DNA of 64,000 bases. Source: Heterodontus francisci (Eukaryota). Numbering within the stretch: position 1 is the first letter of the stretch; each line of letters starts with the position of its first letter. The position numbers and the translations under genes are program-made. This document shows, piece by piece, positions 27,371 to 42,644 of the stretch. Location of the stretch: NCBI RefSeq assembly GCF_036365525.1, contig NC_090409.1, positions 31,444,437 through 31,508,436 of the forward strand, written 5' to 3'. Below the pieces are notes generated by a model. The model did not search any database, had not been told where the DNA came from, and was given only the letters and a program-made list of their open reading frames with translations.

Positions 27371-28855
27371 TTCCAATATTGATGTTCTGAGCTGTTACTT
27401 TGCTTTTACAGATTCAACAAATATGCAGTACGTACTTTAACCGGATGCCGCCTGACCACAACTAACCCCATTCTGTTTGCACTGGCCAATAAAATTCACA
27501 TCCAAGGACGTCACAGATGGCAGGAGCCAGGTGGAAAGCAGTAACCACAACTGGGCTCGAAATAGAACGGAATATTTCACAACTCCGCACTGGAGCTGTC
27601 CTGGCACTCGGTGTAAATATACAAAACAAAAGAACAATAAGTGAGACACTAACTTGTTCCTAATGTTGACAATGGGAAGAGGCTGAAGAGCATCACATGA
27701 GCAGTCAGTGTTAAAACCAAAATTCTGCCTCGGATCTAAAAACATATCCAAAAAACTAGTTAGTTAACCAAACACTGGGCACAGAATGATAGACATGTCC
27801 GGCACAGAAGGAGGCCATTTGGCCCATAGTCTCTGTGCCAGCCAAATAAAACAGTTACAAAAACAAGAAATGCTGGAATCACTCAGCAGGTCTGGCAGCA
27901 TCTGTGGAAAGAGAAGCAGAGTTAACGTTTCGGGTCAGTGACGCTTCTTCGGAACAGCATCCAGCGGTATTTTGCTTAAATAAAACAATTATCCAGCCTA
28001 AACCTCACTTTTCATCTCTCGATCCATAGCTTTGCAGGTTACTGCACTTCAAGTGCTTCTGTCTCGACTGCCTTTTCAGGAAGTGGGTTTTAGAACCCCA
28101 ACAGCTACGGTTAAAATTCCACGATCTTCTGCACTGGTTGCGGCGATTCCGCCCGGATTGGTCCGATGGAAGGAGACGAAACAAACAGAATCTCGCGCGT
28201 CACGGTGGGTGAGCGGAAAACGGACTCGAATGTCCTGGGATTATTTGCACAGATACGCAATCCGGGCTCAAGTCAGATAAGGCCAAATAAATTACCATTT
28301 ACAATTGTCTTGTCAACAACTCCACAACGGATAATCATGACTCCACTTACAGTTTGCAAAGTCTTCTCCTCGAATTTCCCGAAGTTGCGCTCGCTCTCTT
28401 TAAATTAGGGCAGGATTTTTAGGCGGAGCAGGAGATAAAGGAAATTTCTAGTGTATTTGTTGCATGTTGCGCTTTTGCAACATAGCTCCCGGTTGTGAGA
28501 GTCCATATTGTGGGCCAATGCAAATTAACAGTCAGTGATGATGTTGGAAATGTTTGGTAACATAATATTTTGTCACGATATCGAGAAAACATGTTGAGGA
28601 GTTACATTTAAAGTCATACATTGTATTCAGTCACTAATGTACTCCAACTAACTGGAGATTGTGATGGTATATAAATCATTCCACCTATCTTCTGAAAATC
28701 TCTATTATTGTCATATATTGTCAACGGTGTCTGTGTCACCTCATAACATCAGGTATGTTAATATATTGTCGGTTTCAAGATCATCCACGCTGACAGTATA
28801 TCTCCTGTCAAGTTTCTGTTTTGTGTAATTGTTGCATGTCGCACGTGTCTCCATT

Positions 28856-29203
28856 TTTTTTAGTTTAGTTTAGTTTAGTTTAGAGATACAGCACTGAAAC
28901 AAGCCCTTCGGCCCACCGAGTCTGTGCCGACCATCAACCACCAATTTATACTAATGCTACACTAATCCCATATTCCTACCACATTCCGACCTGTCCCTAT
29001 ATTTCCCTACCACCTACCTACACTAGGGGCAACTGCTAATGGCCAATTTACCTATCAACCTGCAAGTCTTTGGTATGTGGGAGGAAACCAGAGCACCCGG
29101 AGGAAACCCACGCAAACACAGGGAGAACTTGCAAACTCCACACAGGCAGTACCCAGAATTGAACCCGGGTCACTGGAGCTGTGAGGCTGCGGTGCTAACC
29201 ACT
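28856..29203 (-). mobile_element. HE1-type V-SINE
   Basis: Reverse complement of 21002-21344. Confidence 0.92.
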
Positions 29204-29599
29204 GGATATATCATTCATGCTTGCGGAGGTTTGGGATCTTGATAGTTGCGTACAAAATCGTTTCATTGTGATCTGGATTCGTGGATTGCAGGGCGCCAAG
29301 ACCGGCGTATGTACACTGATTGTCATTCTGTAACAGAAGGTTACAAGTGTTAGTTTGTAGAGCTATTGCAGGAATGCAGCTCAACGCGCGGCGTGAGTGT
29401 AATGCCTGCAGCGGCGCAAACCGAAGGTCAATGAGATGAGCGTTGTTGAGATGCAAGAAATAAGGATCTTGCCATTATACATGCGGATGAGGCGCCAAGG
29501 TTGTCGTGTTGGACTGAAATGGATAGCACTTTCAAAACGTCGGCACAGACATGACGGGCCGAACGGCCTCATTCTGCTCTGAAAAGTTCTATGGTTTCT

Positions 29600-32647: not shown

Positions 32648-32831
32648 CTAATTATTTGTTGACTTTTGCCTGATATGGGTCACTTCCTGGTTGAAAACAT
32701 AACAAACATCCTGCAATTGCCAATAGAACTCATCGTCACTTACCTCAGTGTTTAATGCGTTCTGTACCGAACTGGAAATCAGGAGATCATCCTGCATTTC
32801 GATGACACCTGCATCTTCTTTCAGTTTCTTC
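32648..32831 (-). CDS. Siglec/MAG-like receptor: cytoplasmic exon (32831-32744); 3' end of the gene uncertain
   Basis: ttgttattcttcag|G is a phase-2 acceptor matching the TM exon. Encodes KKLKEDAGVIEMQDDLLISSSVQNALNTE|gtaagt. The frame stays open to TAG at 32650-32648. Confidence 0.7.
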
Positions 32832-33306
32832 CTGAAGAATAACAAATGCAAATGACCCATTTATCATGATTAACTGAAATGTGTCTTAATGCATATTGCG
32901 CCTGTATGATCAAGGGCGTTCACAGGTTAGTTTCCGAATTAACACAGGCTTTAATCGAACAGGCGCCCAACCAAGGACAATATAGTTGATTTCAATTGCA
33001 AACTTCCTTTGTGATCTGTTGAAGGACGGGTTTGATTTGCAGAACATATTAAACCGAGCAGGTCGTCACTTGAATTAATTTAGAACCAGTGACATTTTTG
33101 AAGATGGCTTTCAGCCTTTCCATTTCAAATCAGGGAGTCTGTCTAGAAGTTCAAATAGGCCAAGCAAGGCCAAATAACTGAAGTAACAGGTAAGAACAAG
33201 ATAGCACATAACAAATTTCGATTATAGCCAATCAGTACTATCCAGTTTTTAAACATAACTTTACACTCCTGGACCTAAACAGCAATAAAACGACTTTAAA
33301 ATATAA

Positions 33307-34135
33307 TATGCAGTATAATGTGGATAAATGTGAGGTTATCCACTTTGGCAGCAAAAACTGGAAGGCAGACTATTACCTGAATGGCAATAAACTGAGAGAG
33401 GGGAATATGCAGCGAGACCTGTGTGTTCTCGTACACCAGTCGCTGAAGGTAAGCATGCAGGTGCAACTGGCGGTAAAAAGGGCAATTGGTAAGTTTGCCC
33501 TCATAGCGAGAGGATTCGAGTACAGGAGTAAGGATGTCTTGCTGCAATTATACAGGGCCTTGGTGAGGCCACACCTGGAATATTGTGTGCAGTTTTGGTC
33601 TCCTTATCTGAGGAAGGATGTTCTTGCTACAGAGGGAGTTCAGCAAAGGTTTACCAGACTGATTCCTGGGATGGCAGGACTGACATATGAGCAGAGATTG
33701 GGTCGGTTCGGATTATATTCGCTGGAGTTCAGAAGAGTGAGGGGGGATCTCATAGAAACCTATAAAATTCTAACAGGACTTGACAGGATAGATGCAGGAA
33801 GGATGTTCCCGATGGTGGGGGAGTCCAGAACCAGGGGTCATAGTCTAAAGATACGGAGTAAACCTTTCAGGACTGAGATGAGGAGAAATTTCTTCACCCA
33901 GAGAGTGGTGAGCCTGTGGAATTCGCTACCACAGAAAGCAGTTGAGGCCAAAACATTGTGTGTTTTCAAGAAGGAGTTAGATATAGCTCTTGGGTCTAAA
34001 GGGATCAAAGGGTAGGGGGCGAAAGCGGGAACAGGTTACTGAGTTGGATGATCAGCCATGATCATAATGAATAGCGGAGCAGGCTGGAAGGGCCGAATGG
34101 CCTACTCCTGCTCCTATTTTCTATGTTTCTGTGTA
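33307..34135 (+). mobile_element. CR1 LINE 3' fragment with an open 235-aa frame (intronic, antisense to the Siglec-like gene)
   Basis: MQYNVDKCEVIHFG...LYRALVRPHLEYCVQFWSPYL...FFTQRVVSLWNSLP. Confidence 0.95.
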
Positions 34136-34609
34136 TGTAACCTTACTTTTACTATTTATTTTCTTGTTGTTTTAAAGTTTCATGAACTAACTGGATAATT
34201 AGAACTCAATTAACATTCTAGTATAGTGTTGTTGAGATACCTTCACAGAAGAAGGCTCCAGGTGGAGAAAAAAACTGAACAGGGTTCTATGCCTATTCCT
34301 TAAACACACTACAAACTGTACCCAGATTACCGGAGACTGAAAAATGTCTGTTTTGAATAAGGGAAAGCATGGTCAGTAATATAATCGGCAAAATGTTAAA
34401 CAATCGATTCAAGCGTCACCTGACATTGCAATATAATTGGTGTTGGAGGATACAAGTCATTGTTTAGGGGACTGCTATCTCTTACATTCCGCACCAGTTC
34501 CGGCAGATGCTCACTGTTCTCATGGGGTGATCATTTTAAAACGAGGTTTTGATACACGGATTTTTTGATGCTACAGCTACATATTTTGCAATTAACAATC
34601 GGCACATAC

Positions 34610-34703
34610 GTTTGATTCTTCACCATGATCACGACTGAAATTAAAACAAGAAGTCCAGAAGCACCTCCCAGGATCATGAAGACGATTTTCCAGGACGTTA
34701 TTC
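34610..34703 (-). CDS. Siglec/MAG-like receptor: transmembrane exon
   Basis: tattatag|GA ... CAA AC|gtatgt. GITSWKIVFMILGGASGLLVLISVVIMVKNQT has no charged residue within the helix. Confidence 0.88.
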
Positions 34704-35355
34704 CTATAATATTGGCAAAACAATACTGTACATCAGGATATTTGTGGTTAAAACAGCAATAGTGTAAGAAAGAAACTTTCCTTTATGATGGAAGGACAAA
34801 GCTAAACACAAATTAATGACACATCTTGCCCAATCTTGTTGGTCCTTCCATAGAAGCATTTGCTTCCTGTGTTCTACCCTGGTCCAACAGAATTGAAGAT
34901 ACCCTTCCTATTTTGGTGTGTTGACCTCAAATTGAATGTCGTCTTTCTATACTAAGGAGGTTCTGAGCATGCTCGAACTAAGAGTGTGTGTGCAAAGAGA
35001 TAAATTAGTTTGCCATCATGTTGTGAAAGGAACTGGGATTGCTAAAGGATTTATCTGAATTCAGAAGGAATGATTCTCTCCTAAGATTACTAACTAATTT
35101 TGTTGCTGACATCATTCCATTTTATCCTGACAAACATAAATGCAGCAAGTTTCAGAATAATGACATTTAACATGGATAATGCACACCTCACCGTTCAGTT
35201 GGGGATGGAACGTGTTCCTGACACTATTTTATGATATATTATGTCCTGACCTGCCGACCCATATTTGCTGACACCAACACCGTGCAGTTAGCAAATGATC
35301 AGATATGTAGCAACCCCTTTATAGTATTTAAATGGCAAATAGATTGAGAATGTAC

Positions 35356-35643
35356 CATCAGAGTGGAGCTGGTATCTGCCGACACAATCACCGTGCTCAT
35401 TTGCTGCAACACACGAGATCACGTTTCCAATTCCAGTTGGGTGCGCCAGTCTCAGGGAGCTCTGCACATGGGAACTGTTCACTTCCCAAGAAATCACTTC
35501 CACCTCTGACCTGTTCCCAGTGATGACGCTGTCATTGACTTTCCAAGTGATGTTTGCCGGTGGATTGGCACTGATGGTGCACGTGCAATTTGTCCAATTC
35601 TCAGAGCTGATGCAGGTCGGGCCTCCGACTATTGTGGGTTTAT
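35356..35643 (-). CDS. Siglec/MAG-like receptor: membrane-proximal Ig exon
   Basis: tttttttttag|AT ... GAT G|gtacat, 288 nt, phase 1-1. YKPTIVGGPTCISSENWTNCTCTISANPPANITW...VISCVAANEHG shows the C..CxC..NP pattern of the last MAG/Siglec domain. Confidence 0.9.
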
Positions 35644-35763
35644 CTAAAAAAAAACAGTCTCTTAATTACGAAGTTATTATGTCCAACAGGGGAAGCATCC
35701 AGGTACAATTAATTTAATTGTGGAACTAACCGTAATGTTTCTGGAAGATTTTACTTTAATATA

Positions 35764-36104
35764 TTTAGAGATACAGCACTGAAACAGGCCCTTCGGCCCA
35801 CCGAGTCTGTGCCAACCATCAACCACCCATTTTTTATACTAATCCTACTAATTCCATATTCCTACCACATCCCCACCTGTCCCTATATTTCCCTACCACC
35901 TACCTATACTAGGGGCAATTTATAAAGGCCAATTTACCTATCAACCTGCAAGTCTTTGGCATGTGGGAGGAAACCGGAGCACCCGGAGGAAACCCACGCA
36001 GACACAGGGAGAACTTGCAAACTCCACACAGGCAGGACCCGGAATTGAACCCGGGTCGCTGGAGCTGTGAGGCTGCGGTGCTAACCACTGCGCCACTGTG
36101 CCGC
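35764..36104 (-). mobile_element. HE1-type V-SINE (intronic)
   Basis: Reverse complement of 21002-21344. Confidence 0.93.
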
Positions 36105-36875
36105 CCATATGGAACACTTTATGTTGCACCCGTTGAGAGCTTATTATATTTTCACTTATAACAGGTTAGCACGTTACATAACAACTCCATACTGAATTCA
36201 AAGTGTGTTCTATCCGAACGTTTTTTCCCCCTGCTGATCCTGTGGGGTTTTCCTCAGACTAAGGAAGCTCAGAGTGGCAATTAAGTATAAGACGGTCAAA
36301 ACTGTGCCTCACATTCCAGTGGTTTCAAAGGTCAGGCCAATATTAATTTCTTAACTAGGTGACTTCTTCCATGGTAAAGGACGTTGACATTTTCCTACTG
36401 GAGATGACCATGCAACACGTCGACGTTTTAAAGGATCGAGTCTCTGAATCGGACATTGCCAGCTCAACATTAGTACTATTACAGAGATTGGGTTATCATC
36501 ATTTTGTCAAATGTTGTTTTGGGTGGAATATTTGTGATCATCGGGTGCTGCATGTATGTCCTAAGGATAGAAATTTGTTTAATCCAGGATCCAACGTTAA
36601 TTATGAACAATTATATATGAAGTGACTATACTTCTCTCCGAACCAGAACAGTGCCAACATCTGGATTTATATTTCACTGCAACATCTTCAACTCCTGTCA
36701 CCCTGAGCGTGATGGCCATATTACTTTCCATTAATAGGGCCAGTGAGTTTTGTTTTGGGCGAAATGTGCACGGATCTGACGGCACTGCCCCAAACTCATG
36801 CCATATTGGTTCTTGGCATTTGAAATTTTTATCATGAATTCGTGAGATGAAATTTCGAAATTCATGCATTCTTAC

Positions 36876-37129
36876 AGTACAGAAATCTGTGTGGTTCTAT
36901 TTGCAGTACCCGTGTTATTTTCAGCCAGACACCAATACTCATCATCATCTTCAGAATATGCGGTTGTGGAATGTCTGCAATAGTTCATCAAGGGAAGATC
37001 TGCCAATCCCTTTACCAATATTCGCCCTTGTAAACAGCAGAGGATTCCACCAGGTTGTGAAGTATAAGATTAATGATCTGCCCTGTAACTCTACTATTGA
37101 GGAATTGATGGTAAGATATTCTAGTCCAT
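36876..37129 (-). pseudogene. Decayed Ig-domain pseudo-exon inside the Siglec-like gene
   Basis: gtgtcag|AT, then (Y)GLEYLTINSSIVELQGRSLILYF..NP..., a frameshift, and SEDDDEYWCLAENNTGTANRTTQISV|gtaag. It is 254 nt, has an in-frame TGA at 36953-36951, and lacks the first Cys. Confidence 0.75.
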
Positions 37130-37626
37130 CTGACACATGCACTAATGCAAAATGTGAATGTCACATGAGCATGATTTTGCTCTAAATGGAAACATTATAT
37201 TGGGAAAGAAGATTACAAACGTATATGTTTTACTGCCAGCCGATTAAAGTTGCATAAGATTTTTTTTCCTCATTTAAAATTTAGTCTCCTCTTTCACTGT
37301 TGTCTGCTTGGTTGTTTATGCACGTTGAGTCGTGTCTCATTCAGAACAATTTTGACGCCTAACCAGGATCTGATATCAAAGCAGAAACCAGTTTTAAAAA
37401 CCTTACTCTGCATGGCGTTTTTATTTGGCTTCATGCTGAATAAACTCAGCATGTCACTGATTGGGAGTCGGCTAAGTGCCATTTCCATTAATTGATTCTC
37501 CGTGTTAGTACTCACATGAAAGAAGCCCATGTTTTCTCAATGCGTTGCATGATGGCATTCAAAACACCTGTTAAATTGTGTGTAATGGAAGTACAAATCT
37601 TTATTGCATTTAGACAAAACACTTAC

Positions 37627-37938
37627 ATTTAATCTCCAAGGCAAGCGTCTGTGGAGAAGACGTTTGGAAGTCACCAATTATAATTGTGCATCCCAGAATT
37701 GATCCCTGATGAGCAGATGATGGAATCAATGTGAGCACGGATGAAACTGTCTGAGACCCTGAAATGTCATTGATAATTTCTGCTCCATCTTTAGTATCCC
37801 ATGCAAGAGGAAGGGACATGTTGTCATGACTCCATTTCACTTGCAGCTTGCTATTCGGGCAGTAGTCGGTGACTGAACAGGTCAGTCGTGCTTTGCGTCC
37901 AGCAACCATCGCCCGAAACCCTGAAATCCGTGGTTTTT
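37627..37938 (-). CDS. Siglec/MAG-like receptor: C2-set domain 2 exon
   Basis: ctcctgcag|AA ... AAA T|gtaagt, 312 nt. EKPRISGFRAMVAGRKARLTCSVTDYCP...W...SSVLTLIPSSAHQGSILGC shows the Siglec D2 signature LxCSxxxxCP ... SxLTxxP...HxGxxLxC. Confidence 0.92.
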
Positions 37939-38350
37939 CTGCAGGAGCAGGAGAAGACTCGCGTTAGATTCATTTCAATTTGAGAGCAGGAAACAAATCT
38001 GTTACTTTTAAATTGGAGAACGAGCCTTTGAAAAGTGTATTGTATGTGTTTTGCCAGCTGTGCATGGCAAGTTAGTTCTCTATTCTGTATTATTCCTTGG
38101 AGTTATAAAGTAGTTTAGTGCCTCACTGTGCAATACATGACCTTGCTTAATTAATCATCAGTCGTTTTATCACCTACGTTATTCAAATCATCACAAAACC
38201 ATTTCCATGTTTTGAATATGTATCATTGCATCTTTTAACAGTATCCCTGCATCCTATGTGTCAACAGCTCATTATAATAGTTACCTAATTTGTACATATA
38301 ATGATTCACATTGAAAGAATGGACAGAAATGTACAGAAGGAAGAACTCAC

Positions 38351-38722
38351 CTGAAACAGAAAGAACGACTCGAGAATGTTCAGAGTGCTGGTCTGCAGTT
38401 TGCCCGAATGTCAAGATGAATTGATATGTGCCCTCATCGCTCTTTCTGATACGCTTTATCAGGAGGGAGCATTGCCTTTCTCCAAGGTTGCCGGTGAACA
38501 CAACTCTCCCGCTGTAGTTGGCGTGCTGCTTGTGTGGATCTTTCGAATTATAGATCACTGAGGCACTGGGGTTACCAACACTGGAGCTCATCTTTATCCA
38601 AATACCGTTTGGGTAGCTGTTATTGATTACATTATCAAAGGTGCACCGGATATCTGCACATGAACCAGCCACCGCCGACATAGATTCTGTCAGCACCACA
38701 GAGCATTTTGCTGTAAAAACAA
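38351..38722 (-). CDS. Siglec/MAG-like receptor: V-set exon
   Basis: ttttgtcag|TT ... TCA G|gtgagt, 372 nt. SAVAGSCADIRCTF...GIW...YSGRVVFTGNLGERQCSLLIKRIRKSDEGTYQF carries the Siglec-specific Cys pattern (CxxxxC and E-strand CSL). Confidence 0.93.
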
Positions 38723-39329
38723 CTGACAAAACAAAACAAAAAACCTGCTTTAACGTAGTTGTCAATTGACGAATAATCGCCCATCACAATAACAATTTAG
38801 ACAACAATTAAGACCTTTTCAAAAATCAAGTAAACTACCAATTAAATAGCAATAGCACTTGCAGAAAAGTTAAATTGAATACCTATTTTGTGTGAGACTT
38901 ATAAATAAATATCATACATATTTAATATAAACCAAAACTAAATACAAATGCACTAATAAACAGCAGAATGTCCAATAAAATGCCCAAGTATAAATTACAT
39001 TATTGATCGCAATATACATTACACATCTATTCATTCTCCCTTGTATTTTCAATAGTTATGAGTTAAAATGTTATTAAAAGTGCGTGATAATACTCATATA
39101 TTTCATACTAATAATATAATTTGCAATGTACAATATTTAAATATGATCTTAATAGGCAGCCAAACGCAACAATGCACCGACAAATAATGCATTAACCAGA
39201 CACGTAGTTCCTATTTCCAATTATTCTAACATCAATCATCGAAAATCATTTCTATTAGGTACTGTTCTTAACTATTCCGGAAAAATGCAATCAACTGCTG
39301 TGTACATTGTAAAAAAAAAAGAAATGTAC

Positions 39330-39366
39330 CTGTTGTCAATGTCATGAGAAAAACAAACGTCATCAT
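39330..39366 (-). CDS. Siglec/MAG-like receptor: signal-peptide exon
   Basis: aacATGATG ... ACA G|gtacat. Encodes MMTFVFLMTLTT; 37 nt, phase 1. Confidence 0.75.
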
Positions 39367-41022
39367 GTTTGGACACAACTGCCGATTTCACTCTCAAGAT
39401 GAAGAACACTTAAGAAAATTCAAGTTTCTGCATTCTTCGTGTCAGTCACATTTTGGTTTTATTTGCTATTCAGCATCGGACAATCTAGGTAGGAAGTATT
39501 CGGTGTCGATGGATCTGTAGGGACAGTGGGTCTACAGTAAGGTTCCTTGGTGATGTAGACAGCTTGCACACGGGCTGCCTGTGACTGGCTATTAATGAAT
39601 ATGTTTACTGTATATGTAACAGTTGCTAAAGAATACTTACTACCGCAACAACATAGATCTGTCTCCCTCAAACACAAACGTCAAATGTATTGCTATTTAT
39701 GCAATAATATTTGGCATCTGTATCAAGACCTACGCTGGCTGACTGTCATTTCACACATATTTAACTTGCCAGCAGCTTATACGAGGTGTATGTTGGAGAC
39801 TTGTGACTAAACAGTTTGGTTGCTGCAGTCTGGAGAAGTGCGGTTTCGGCACCTTCCTTAATTACTGCCCTCATACTCATCTGTGACATCAGAGGTAAGA
39901 GCTGTTTCAGAGTAAACCGTTAGAGGCTGTGGTTGACAGCTTTCTGCCGAATTCATTTAACTCTTTACATTCACAGTCAAGAAATTAACCAAAATTCTGC
40001 TCAACTTGTTGAAGTACTTTGCGTTTCAAATTTCGGTATGAGGTTTGGGATGTTTGAAATGTCTTTGGAGTTTTGTCCCAAACACAAATAGTGCTGGGAA
40101 ATACATGGAAAAAGATGAGGGAACCAACGGGTCCAACCAAACTGATCAGTTTGGCAAAATCCTGGACACACAGTACTTGTCATTTGTGGTTAATTGTGTT
40201 CACTAGCTCGGAGACAGAAATAGATTGAAGCGATTGCCGGCGCAGACTAAGAAATTCTTCCAGCAAATTCCTATTGTCGCTCAAAGACGGAGAGCAGAAC
40301 ACATCTCTCCGATGCATCCCCACTGCAGAAAGTCGTGAATTCGTGGGATCAGGTCACGTGGTTTAGCGTACTTCTCATCTGCAACTATCTTTATGCAATG
40401 ATTATTATTTTATAACAAAAATATGCATATCACATTGGTACAGTAGAATGCGGTTTTGTGAGGCTGGGACTCAAATGGTGTGTGTGAGAAAGTAAAAGAT
40501 TTCAAAAAACGTTTTATTCAACTGCTTATCTGAAACTTGTCAAATAAAAATCTAAATAATTTTGCCAGGCTAATTTCCATCCCTGCCCTCCTCGCCTTGA
40601 ATGCTTTAACTATTATTCATTGGGGTTTGAAAACTGTCGAATACCTTCTGTATTGTGCTATCAATCATCTCGCTACGTCAATAGCAGGCAGTCTAGCCTT
40701 TCATAAACTGTGACTGCTGTTAGCAATAATTTCTCAACATCAATTATGCCCAATCGTCCTTCCAAAATGTGAAGGAGTAAGGCAGCACCTTAACCCCTTG
40801 TGAATTCCGGCAGTAATTATACAGAGACATTTACGTGCAGCGATGCTATTAACTTGCAAAGAAAATTTCATCAAAATTTTAACCCCAACCTGTTAGCATT
40901 CTGAAAACTAATGGCAATATGTTGGAAAGTGTATGGGATTGCAAATTAAATATTTCAACCAACAAAAATGAAGTAATCTGTGCCGTGTCTGAGGTGGGCG
41001 GAGTTATATCAAACTCACTGCT

Positions 41023-42367: not shown

Positions 42368-42644
42368 CTGAAACAGAAAGATAAACTTGAATCCCTGAGT
42401 GTAGTATTTCTTTGCATAACAGCACAAGCACAAAGGGATTTCCTAATATTGCCTGCATGGATCTTTCGAATTATAGATAATGGAGACACCGGAAGTGCAG
42501 GAGCAGGGCCTTGCTTCAACCACATTCCATTTGGCTTGGCCTCATCGCTTAGATGATCAAATGCACACCGTATCTCTGCACATGAACCCAACACCGCCCA
42601 CACATCTTTTGCCATCACAGCAGAACAGGGAGCACCCGAAACAA
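42368..42644 (-). pseudogene. Siglec-like V-set pseudo-exon of a tandem paralog
   Basis: ttttcctcag|TT VSGAPCSAVMAKDVWAVLGSCAEIRCAFD...PNGMWLK, then frame shifts through IIYNSKDP, NIRKS and FVLV...VYLSVS-G|gtgagt. Has internal deletions relative to 38351-38722. Confidence 0.88.

Follow-up and report, generated by a model that had tools for sequence, protein, structure and literature searches.

A Siglec-like receptor gene of Heterodontus francisci whose V domain lacks the essential arginine, a state conserved across shark orders

Introduction

Siglecs bind sialic acid through an essential arginine and an A-strand aromatic residue of their first, V-set domain. A 64,000-nucleotide stretch of the genome of the shark Heterodontus francisci, here called the window, contains an exon for a Siglec-type V domain in which both residues seem to be replaced. 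This raises the question of whether the gene is decaying, whether it binds sialic acid in some other way, or whether, as an earlier note made from the sequence alone suggested, it belongs to a Siglec-derived subfamily that was repurposed for a different ligand. Here, we follow this question from the gene model and its transcript to the age of the arginine loss and the residues that surround the former binding site.

The gene and its transcript

The gene model consists of a signal exon, a V domain, a second Ig domain (D2), a domain resembling Ig5 of MAG, a transmembrane segment and two cytoplasmic exons. It comprises 1308 nt with a single stop and encodes 435 amino acids, and its length and exons agree with the H. 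francisci RefSeq protein XP_067874876.1 (P0005), which carries the automatic name 'sialic acid-binding Ig-like lectin 13'. The features are as follows:

39330..39366, minus strand: coding part of exon 1, signal peptide (gene model; the transcript contig joins 39330 to 38722 and continues to 39450, where the compared region ends)
38351..38722, minus strand: V-set exon (D1), Siglec/CD22-type first domain (Pfam Ig_CD22 and V-set; PDB matches)
38703..38705, minus strand: Cys19 (TGC), at the A-strand Trp position (W22 of MAG), from profile, structural alignment and codon reading
38415..38417, minus strand: Ile115 (ATC), at the essential Arg position (R118 of MAG), from phmmer and profile; same in the spliced contig
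37627..37938, minus strand: D2 exon with Cys163, the expected partner of Cys34 (pairing inferred from C37-C165 of MAG)
36876..37129, minus strand: decayed Ig exon, skipped; 254 nt, with a frameshift, B-strand Cys and C-strand Trp gone
35356..35643, minus strand: membrane-proximal domain like Ig5 of MAG, with C251, C260, C262 and C318 and an extra Cys327 (HGDC)
34610..34703, minus strand: transmembrane exon, no charge within the helix (residues 341-370 in the model); contig joints
32744..32831, minus strand: first cytoplasmic exon, with the proximal Tyr motif of the family lacking its Tyr; contig joint 32830-34609
29211..29327, minus strand: last coding exon, ITIM-like ILYATI and stop; matches RefSeq P0005; beyond the contig-checked region
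42368..42644, minus strand: dead paralogous V exon, with Cys at the Trp slot, a one-base frameshift and about 95 nt deleted

Four sequencing runs were compared with region 32650-39450. Run X1 yielded a 1276-nt contig that contains five exon pieces with no differing letter and a joint to a sixth exon; its joints are canonical and lead from the signal exon through the first cytoplasmic exon, and the codons of both Cys19 and Ile115 are unchanged. Since this spliced contig covers the V exon, which lies between AG and GT and has a single open frame, without a single other letter, the unusual codons are not sequence errors. Two of the joints are also present in run X2, which derives from the same sample, and runs X3 and X5 had no coverage of the exons. 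Expression is thus documented by runs of one sample whose tissue is not on record; the runs are not annotated as RNA and were taken as such because they contain spliced joints.

The gene harbors a further Ig exon, which has decayed. Tblastn matches it in two frames to intact domains of P0014, P0015, P0173, P0027 and P0077, and its inclusion would lead to a stop at codon 300. The contig joint 35643-37627 leaves this exon out, and inclusion was rejected on the basis of zero contig depth in the exon body; a short joint at its 3' end, which differs by three letters, is best read as the transcript of a paralog. The corresponding domain is absent from all proteins of the ortholog set described below and is kept in paralogs of Heptranchias, Narcine and Mustelus. 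The Heterodontus paralog P0015 carries it in place of D2, which indicates that the number of domains in this family changes by exon loss. The frameshifted exon and the dead paralogous exon 4 kb upstream could suggest that the whole gene is a decaying pseudogene, or that the altered codons are assembly errors; however, the spliced contig omits the dead exon and is identical to the DNA at every letter, and seven other species share these residues, which makes this reading extremely improbable.

The cytoplasmic tail retains one tyrosine motif, ILYATI, which we take to fit the wider ITIM consensus. Two other tyrosine motifs of the family are gone from the studied gene: the proximal one has lost its tyrosine, and the stop and a SINE truncate the tail before the terminal one. 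The SINE (28864-29204, minus strand) breaks the family reading three codons past the stop (28815-29213), and beyond it lies a decayed remnant of the terminal motif of the family. P0015 stops at nearly the same residue as the studied protein. Elsewhere in the window, positions 465-1489 of the plus strand contain apparent 3' exons of a nectin-like gene, namely a split third Ig domain, for which the Pfam I-set match is weak, and a transmembrane exon; nectin and Siglec genes adjoin in mammals too. An assembly gap (N run) at 55732-55894 is followed by around 6 kb of CT-rich simple repeat.

A Siglec-type V domain without the residues for sialic acid binding

The V exon exceeds the cut-off for two Pfam models, Ig_CD22 (44.3 bits) and V-set (40 bits), and the top phmmer matches among PDB sequences are sialoadhesin, MAG and CD33. 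In these alignments, Ile115, encoded by ATC at 38417-38415, stands opposite the arginine of sialoadhesin (YNFR), MAG (YYFR) and CD33 (YFFR); the family profile and the spliced contig agree. Isoleucine in this column goes beyond chance, since 51 of 69 V domains from outside the family keep the arginine there. The A-strand tryptophan, W22 of MAG in the family profile, is replaced by Cys19 (TGC, 38705-38703); the structural alignment pairs residue 17 of the model with residue 20 of MAG, which puts C19 at W22 if ungapped. Y127 on the G strand of MAG aligns with His125 in the profile and with Asp123 in phmmer, so the register is unsure, and neither residue is Trp or Tyr. Both replacements had been claimed by the earlier note and hold, as does its statement that the Siglec cysteine pattern is kept: C34, C39 and C97, together with C163 of D2, align with MAG cysteines in the profile, and we infer an intra-sheet B-E pair (C39-C97) and a D1-D2 pair (C34-C163). 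MAG itself has an inter-domain bond C37-C165 and an extra pair C421-C430 in Ig5, as given in an excerpt of PMC5150538. According to the same excerpt, the exchanges R118A, Y127A and T128A abolish ganglioside binding of MAG, and mannosylation of W22 gives no help to binding (PMC5150538). With the equivalents of Arg118, Trp22 and probably Tyr127 gone, canonical sialic acid binding would be impossible. A Siglec-type V domain and the Siglec cysteine pattern are thus present, the essential arginine and the A-strand aromatic residue are absent, and the protein is best classed as Siglec-like, probably outside the Siglecs as defined by their function.

In the sequence alignment of the ortholog set, no conserved substitute for the arginine was found near the site: R130 is Glu, Ser or Met in the seven other orthologs. 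R85 and K56 are common to the whole family, and R85 presumably has its usual structural role in V domains. A sialylated ligand might still be bound through a non-canonical pocket, as described for Siglec-6, whose R122A variant retains Arg-independent binding of ganglioside liposomes through the V/C2 interface (excerpt of PMC10122656). Arg92 of Siglec-6 is discussed there for a non-canonical sialoside pocket, and its equivalent R85, as well as the D1-D2 cysteines, is kept in the shark protein. However, the excerpt also describes Siglec-6 as the only Siglec with Arg-independent binding, with the arginine conserved in all Siglecs (PMC10122656). A structural role of R85 and the lack of a conserved arginine near the canonical site likewise speak against such a pocket, which we consider very unlikely.

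An AlphaFold2 model, built from a 60-row alignment, has a mean pLDDT of 77.4; a single-sequence fold of the V exon reached a pLDDT of 49.8 and was set aside. The top fold match is MAG (Foldseek E 8e-23, TM 0.76 on target; VIA Z 22.1, rmsd 4.8, 303 residues aligned, about 23% identity), a comparison of aligned ranges and not a residue-level superposition, and the next is CD22 (Z 17.5). MAG, Siglec-8, Siglec-5 and CD33 lead the ranking with the family profile, in which the last domain aligns to Ig5 of MAG, and matches in the ESM Atlas were CD33/CD22/MAG-type clusters only. Among solved structures, MAG is the closest to the family.

An elasmobranch family in which the arginine was lost early

One homolog search yielded four proteins, another the best 150 of 274 representatives and another 32 proteins; broadening the alignment in a further search brought in no member of the family. 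The 379 domain hits were reduced to 101 non-redundant V domains (score at least 55, length at least 95 residues), of which 32 form an elasmobranch clade separate from the other Siglec-like V domains in the sample (support 99/99, 68-row tree). The same clade is obtained if the trait columns are omitted (30 rows, 99/98) and from D2 (88/81). Species names were taken from source labels, and two rows of the family are either fused models or without a name. Among the named matches there was no member from a chimaera or skate, which is weak evidence for their absence. Four Heterodontus members were among the matches of this non-exhaustive search, and all lack the arginine (Ile in three, Ala in one).

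Arginine is missing from 21 of the 32 family V domains (Arg 11, Ile 14, Ser 2, Thr 2, Leu 1, Ala 1, Lys 1). Cysteine occupies the Trp slot in nine family rows, all of them without the arginine, and also in 4 of the 69 non-family rows, which have Arg or Lys at the site; the change from Trp to Cys alone is therefore not unique. Using all columns, a clade of 17 rows without any arginine is supported by 99/88 and covers 13 species labels, including Heptranchias, Pristiophorus and the ray Narcine, which forms a long branch. Without the trait columns (39 rows, nine of them outgroups; P0038 and P0124 omitted), this clade is still found in the best tree, with a support of only 75/65. The D2-only tree (32 rows; P0015, P0016, P0030, P0038, P0124, P0178 and models without a V domain omitted) contains a set of 13 shark rows with no arginine (87/92) and leaves Narcine unplaced. 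Since Heptranchias P0014 combines Trp with Ile, the arginine was lost before the tryptophan.

Within the 17-row clade, an ortholog set from eight species (Heterodontus, Rhincodon, Stegostoma, two Chiloscyllium, Carcharodon, Cetorhinus and Mustelus) is supported by 100/96 with all columns and 99/95 without the trait columns in the V trees; it does not resolve as one clade in the D2 tree. These species span four orders, which split roughly 200 million years ago. Isoleucine is present in all eight orthologs and cysteine in seven, with Pro in Mustelus; pairwise V identity between orders is 48-55%. The Arg-less state is conserved across shark orders. As the set shares Ile and Cys and has its own invariant residues around the site, the loss is old and conserved and does not reflect decay. 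Scoring the V-domain phylogeny for the arginine, a check proposed in the earlier note, supports a Siglec-derived subfamily without the canonical site, and the orthologs carry the claim that the change predates the local duplication better than the dead paralog from which it was drawn.

Outside the 17-row clade, 11 of 15 family rows keep the arginine. The remaining four have Ala, Lys, Thr and Thr, which corresponds to at least four changes on the tree. Repeated loss would be in line with an arginine given up, in the studied lineage once, to escape sialic acid mimics without gain of a new ligand. The receptor would then be a ligand-poor co-receptor or cis partner, and its conserved face would be needed for folding or for packing onto a second chain of the same cell. 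Escape from sialic acid-mimicking pathogens was proposed as the cause of the arginine loss in human Siglec-XII (excerpt of PMC13358205), and an exon and two tail motifs have been lost from the studied gene as well. However, an isoleucine in eight of eight orthologs and the fixed positions in its neighborhood are unexpected under simple loss, and we regard this alternative as unlikely.

Several other members of the wider group deserve mention. P0034, P0181, P0182, P0030 and P0060, Siglec-like proteins of sharks and rays that do not belong to the Ile lineage, show more apparently independent arginine losses (Ala, Thr, Lys, Glu). The ray proteins P0068, P0179, P0180, P0183 and P0184 keep the arginine, lack the tryptophan and have, on the F and G strands of the V domain, two extra cysteines (columns 113 and 130), which likely form an extra disulfide beside the sugar site. 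P0019, P0049, P0074 and P0089 constitute a separate Siglec-like group that likewise has Cys in the Trp slot; it carries additional N-terminal cysteines and others on strand C, and its residue at the site is Arg or Lys.

A probably remodelled C-C'-F-G face as a putative ligand-binding surface

Among the eight orthologs, 32 of 121 V positions are invariant. Seven of these, I55, A66, T111, Q113, F118, H128 and S129, are rare in the 11 family rows with arginine, and all seven lie on strands C, C', F and G (7/7 versus 13/31; hypergeometric P ~0.0007). Position 115 was excluded, strands were taken from the predicted model, and the test considers strand assignment irrespective of side-chain direction. 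When each order is represented by a single row, the count is 7 of 10 (P ~0.013); controls with Arg-bearing sharks and rays gave 4/14 and 8/23, and six other Arg-less rows gave no strand signal (1/2). Because the test is post hoc and the rows are related, the result is a lead only.

A receptor lineage that lost its key arginine and kept this loss across sharks probably recognizes something other than sialic acid. The reading that we favor, and hold to be somewhat more probable than all others together, is that the C-C'-F-G face was fixed in a new, more hydrophobic form, comprising I55, A66, T111, Q113, I115, F118, H128 and S129, which would bind a non-sialic ligand; a protein surface is the most likely one. 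The gene, intact and spliced, encodes a single-pass receptor with a V domain, two C2-type domains, an uncharged transmembrane helix and one ITIM-like motif, and its elasmobranch family would derive from MAG/CD33-type Siglecs. Ligand binding would lead to phosphorylation of the tail tyrosine and recruitment of SHP-type phosphatases, thereby damping cell activation. It is tempting to speculate further that early in sharks, possibly before the split of sharks and rays, one branch of an ITIM-bearing Siglec-like family gave up sialic acid, took a conserved protein ligand on this face instead and was kept beside its Arg-bearing sisters, and that one sub-branch gained an N-terminal cysteine and became a covalent dimer; this fuller scenario is tentative and, taken as a whole, rather doubtful.

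Cys19, Cys327 and the dead paralog

The cysteines of D1 and D2 (19, 34, 39, 97, 157, 163 and 220) are odd in number. The earlier note proposed that the extra cysteines of D1 and of the last domain might form novel or intermolecular disulfides. The cysteine of the HGDC motif is real, but it is not kept together with Cys19: of the six ortholog-set proteins with this domain, five carry Ser in the Cys327 slot, and several paralogs carry Cys there regardless of whether they have Cys19. The slot appears to be one for small residues, and Cys327 was rejected as the general partner of Cys19.

Cleavage sites of signal peptides are scored by the -3/-1 rule. A site three residues upstream of Cys19 fits 14 of 19 family rows and a site right after Cys19 fits seven of the eight Cys-bearing rows tested, both including the studied protein. 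Cys19 may thus be the last residue of a shifted signal peptide, and cleavage behind it would remove it from the mature chain, which weakens the disulfide proposal further. Alternatively, Cys19 could sit as an unpaired thiol close to the start of the mature chain and connect two receptors, or a receptor and a partner, through a disulfide. The odd number of cysteines, the presence of Cys in seven of eight orthologs and two other rows, and the family-wide upstream cleavage site are in line with such a thiol. However, the cleavage site just behind Cys19, the Pro in Mustelus and the exclusion of Cys327 as general partner count against it, so that we consider it possible, with the balance somewhat on the other side. 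A homodimer prediction for residues 17-242, in which the alignment was not used, gave a score of 0.01 and speaks neither for nor against a dimer.

The earlier note credited the dead paralogous exon with Cys at the Trp slot and apparently Val at the arginine site. The Cys stands; the Val cannot be relied on, as the FVL from which it was read lies directly behind the deletion of about 95 nt, which spans strands D-F. Tblastn with eight family proteins detected no further exon of this paralog.

Comparison with known Siglecs

Arg-less Siglecs are known already from primates; a conserved Arg-less lineage in sharks appears to be new. The literature searched yielded no shark Siglec-like family scored for the arginine, although reviews on Siglec evolution may mention shark Siglecs. 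The known cases are recent primate exceptions that are read as escape or decay, whereas the loss in sharks is old and widely shared, and Arg-bearing sister genes of the same family provide built-in controls. The family thus offers a testable case of an I-type lectin becoming a receptor for something else. If the fuller scenario outlined above is true, it would represent a stable switch from lectin to protein receptor on the Siglec scaffold and a sialic acid-independent self-recognition checkpoint in cartilaginous fish. The lectin names given by RefSeq are probably misleading as to the function of these proteins, and the number 13 is a similarity label.

Like MAG (Siglec-4), the studied protein has a V domain and D2 with an inter-domain cysteine pair and an Ig5-type extra cysteine pair near the membrane. 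It differs from MAG in having three instead of five domains in the spliced product, in the replacement of R118 by Ile and of W22 by Cys, and in the absence of the WxxW mannosylation motif; without five Ig domains and R118, it does not qualify as a MAG ortholog. The CD33-related Siglecs (Siglec-5, -8, -10 and CD33) are the next-best profile matches after MAG and resemble the shark family as tandem, fast-changing genes with a variable number of C2 domains and tails with Tyr motifs; they differ in the arginine, which the studied protein lacks. Our trees contain no named MAG or mammalian CD33-related rows.

Arg-mutant primate Siglecs (human Siglec-XII with R122C, and chimpanzee Siglec-5 and -14) share the Siglec scaffold minus the essential arginine and do not bind sialic acid, as stated in an excerpt of PMC6288428. 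They are recent and lineage-limited, and SIGLEC12 is gaining null alleles; the shark state, in contrast, is found under 13 species labels (sharks and one ray), with further residues of the site replaced and conserved. Siglec-6 illustrates that loss of the canonical arginine need not abolish sialoside binding; unlike the shark protein, however, it has kept its own arginine, and a second pocket in the shark protein would be hypothetical. The transmembrane segment is uncharged. The final Ile of ILYATI departs from the strict ITIM signature given in an excerpt of PMC7226832. The same excerpt, from a study on teleosts, states that fish genomes are devoid of inhibitory CD33-related Siglecs (PMC7226832); against this statement, sharks carry an expanded Siglec-like family whose tails contain tyrosine motifs.
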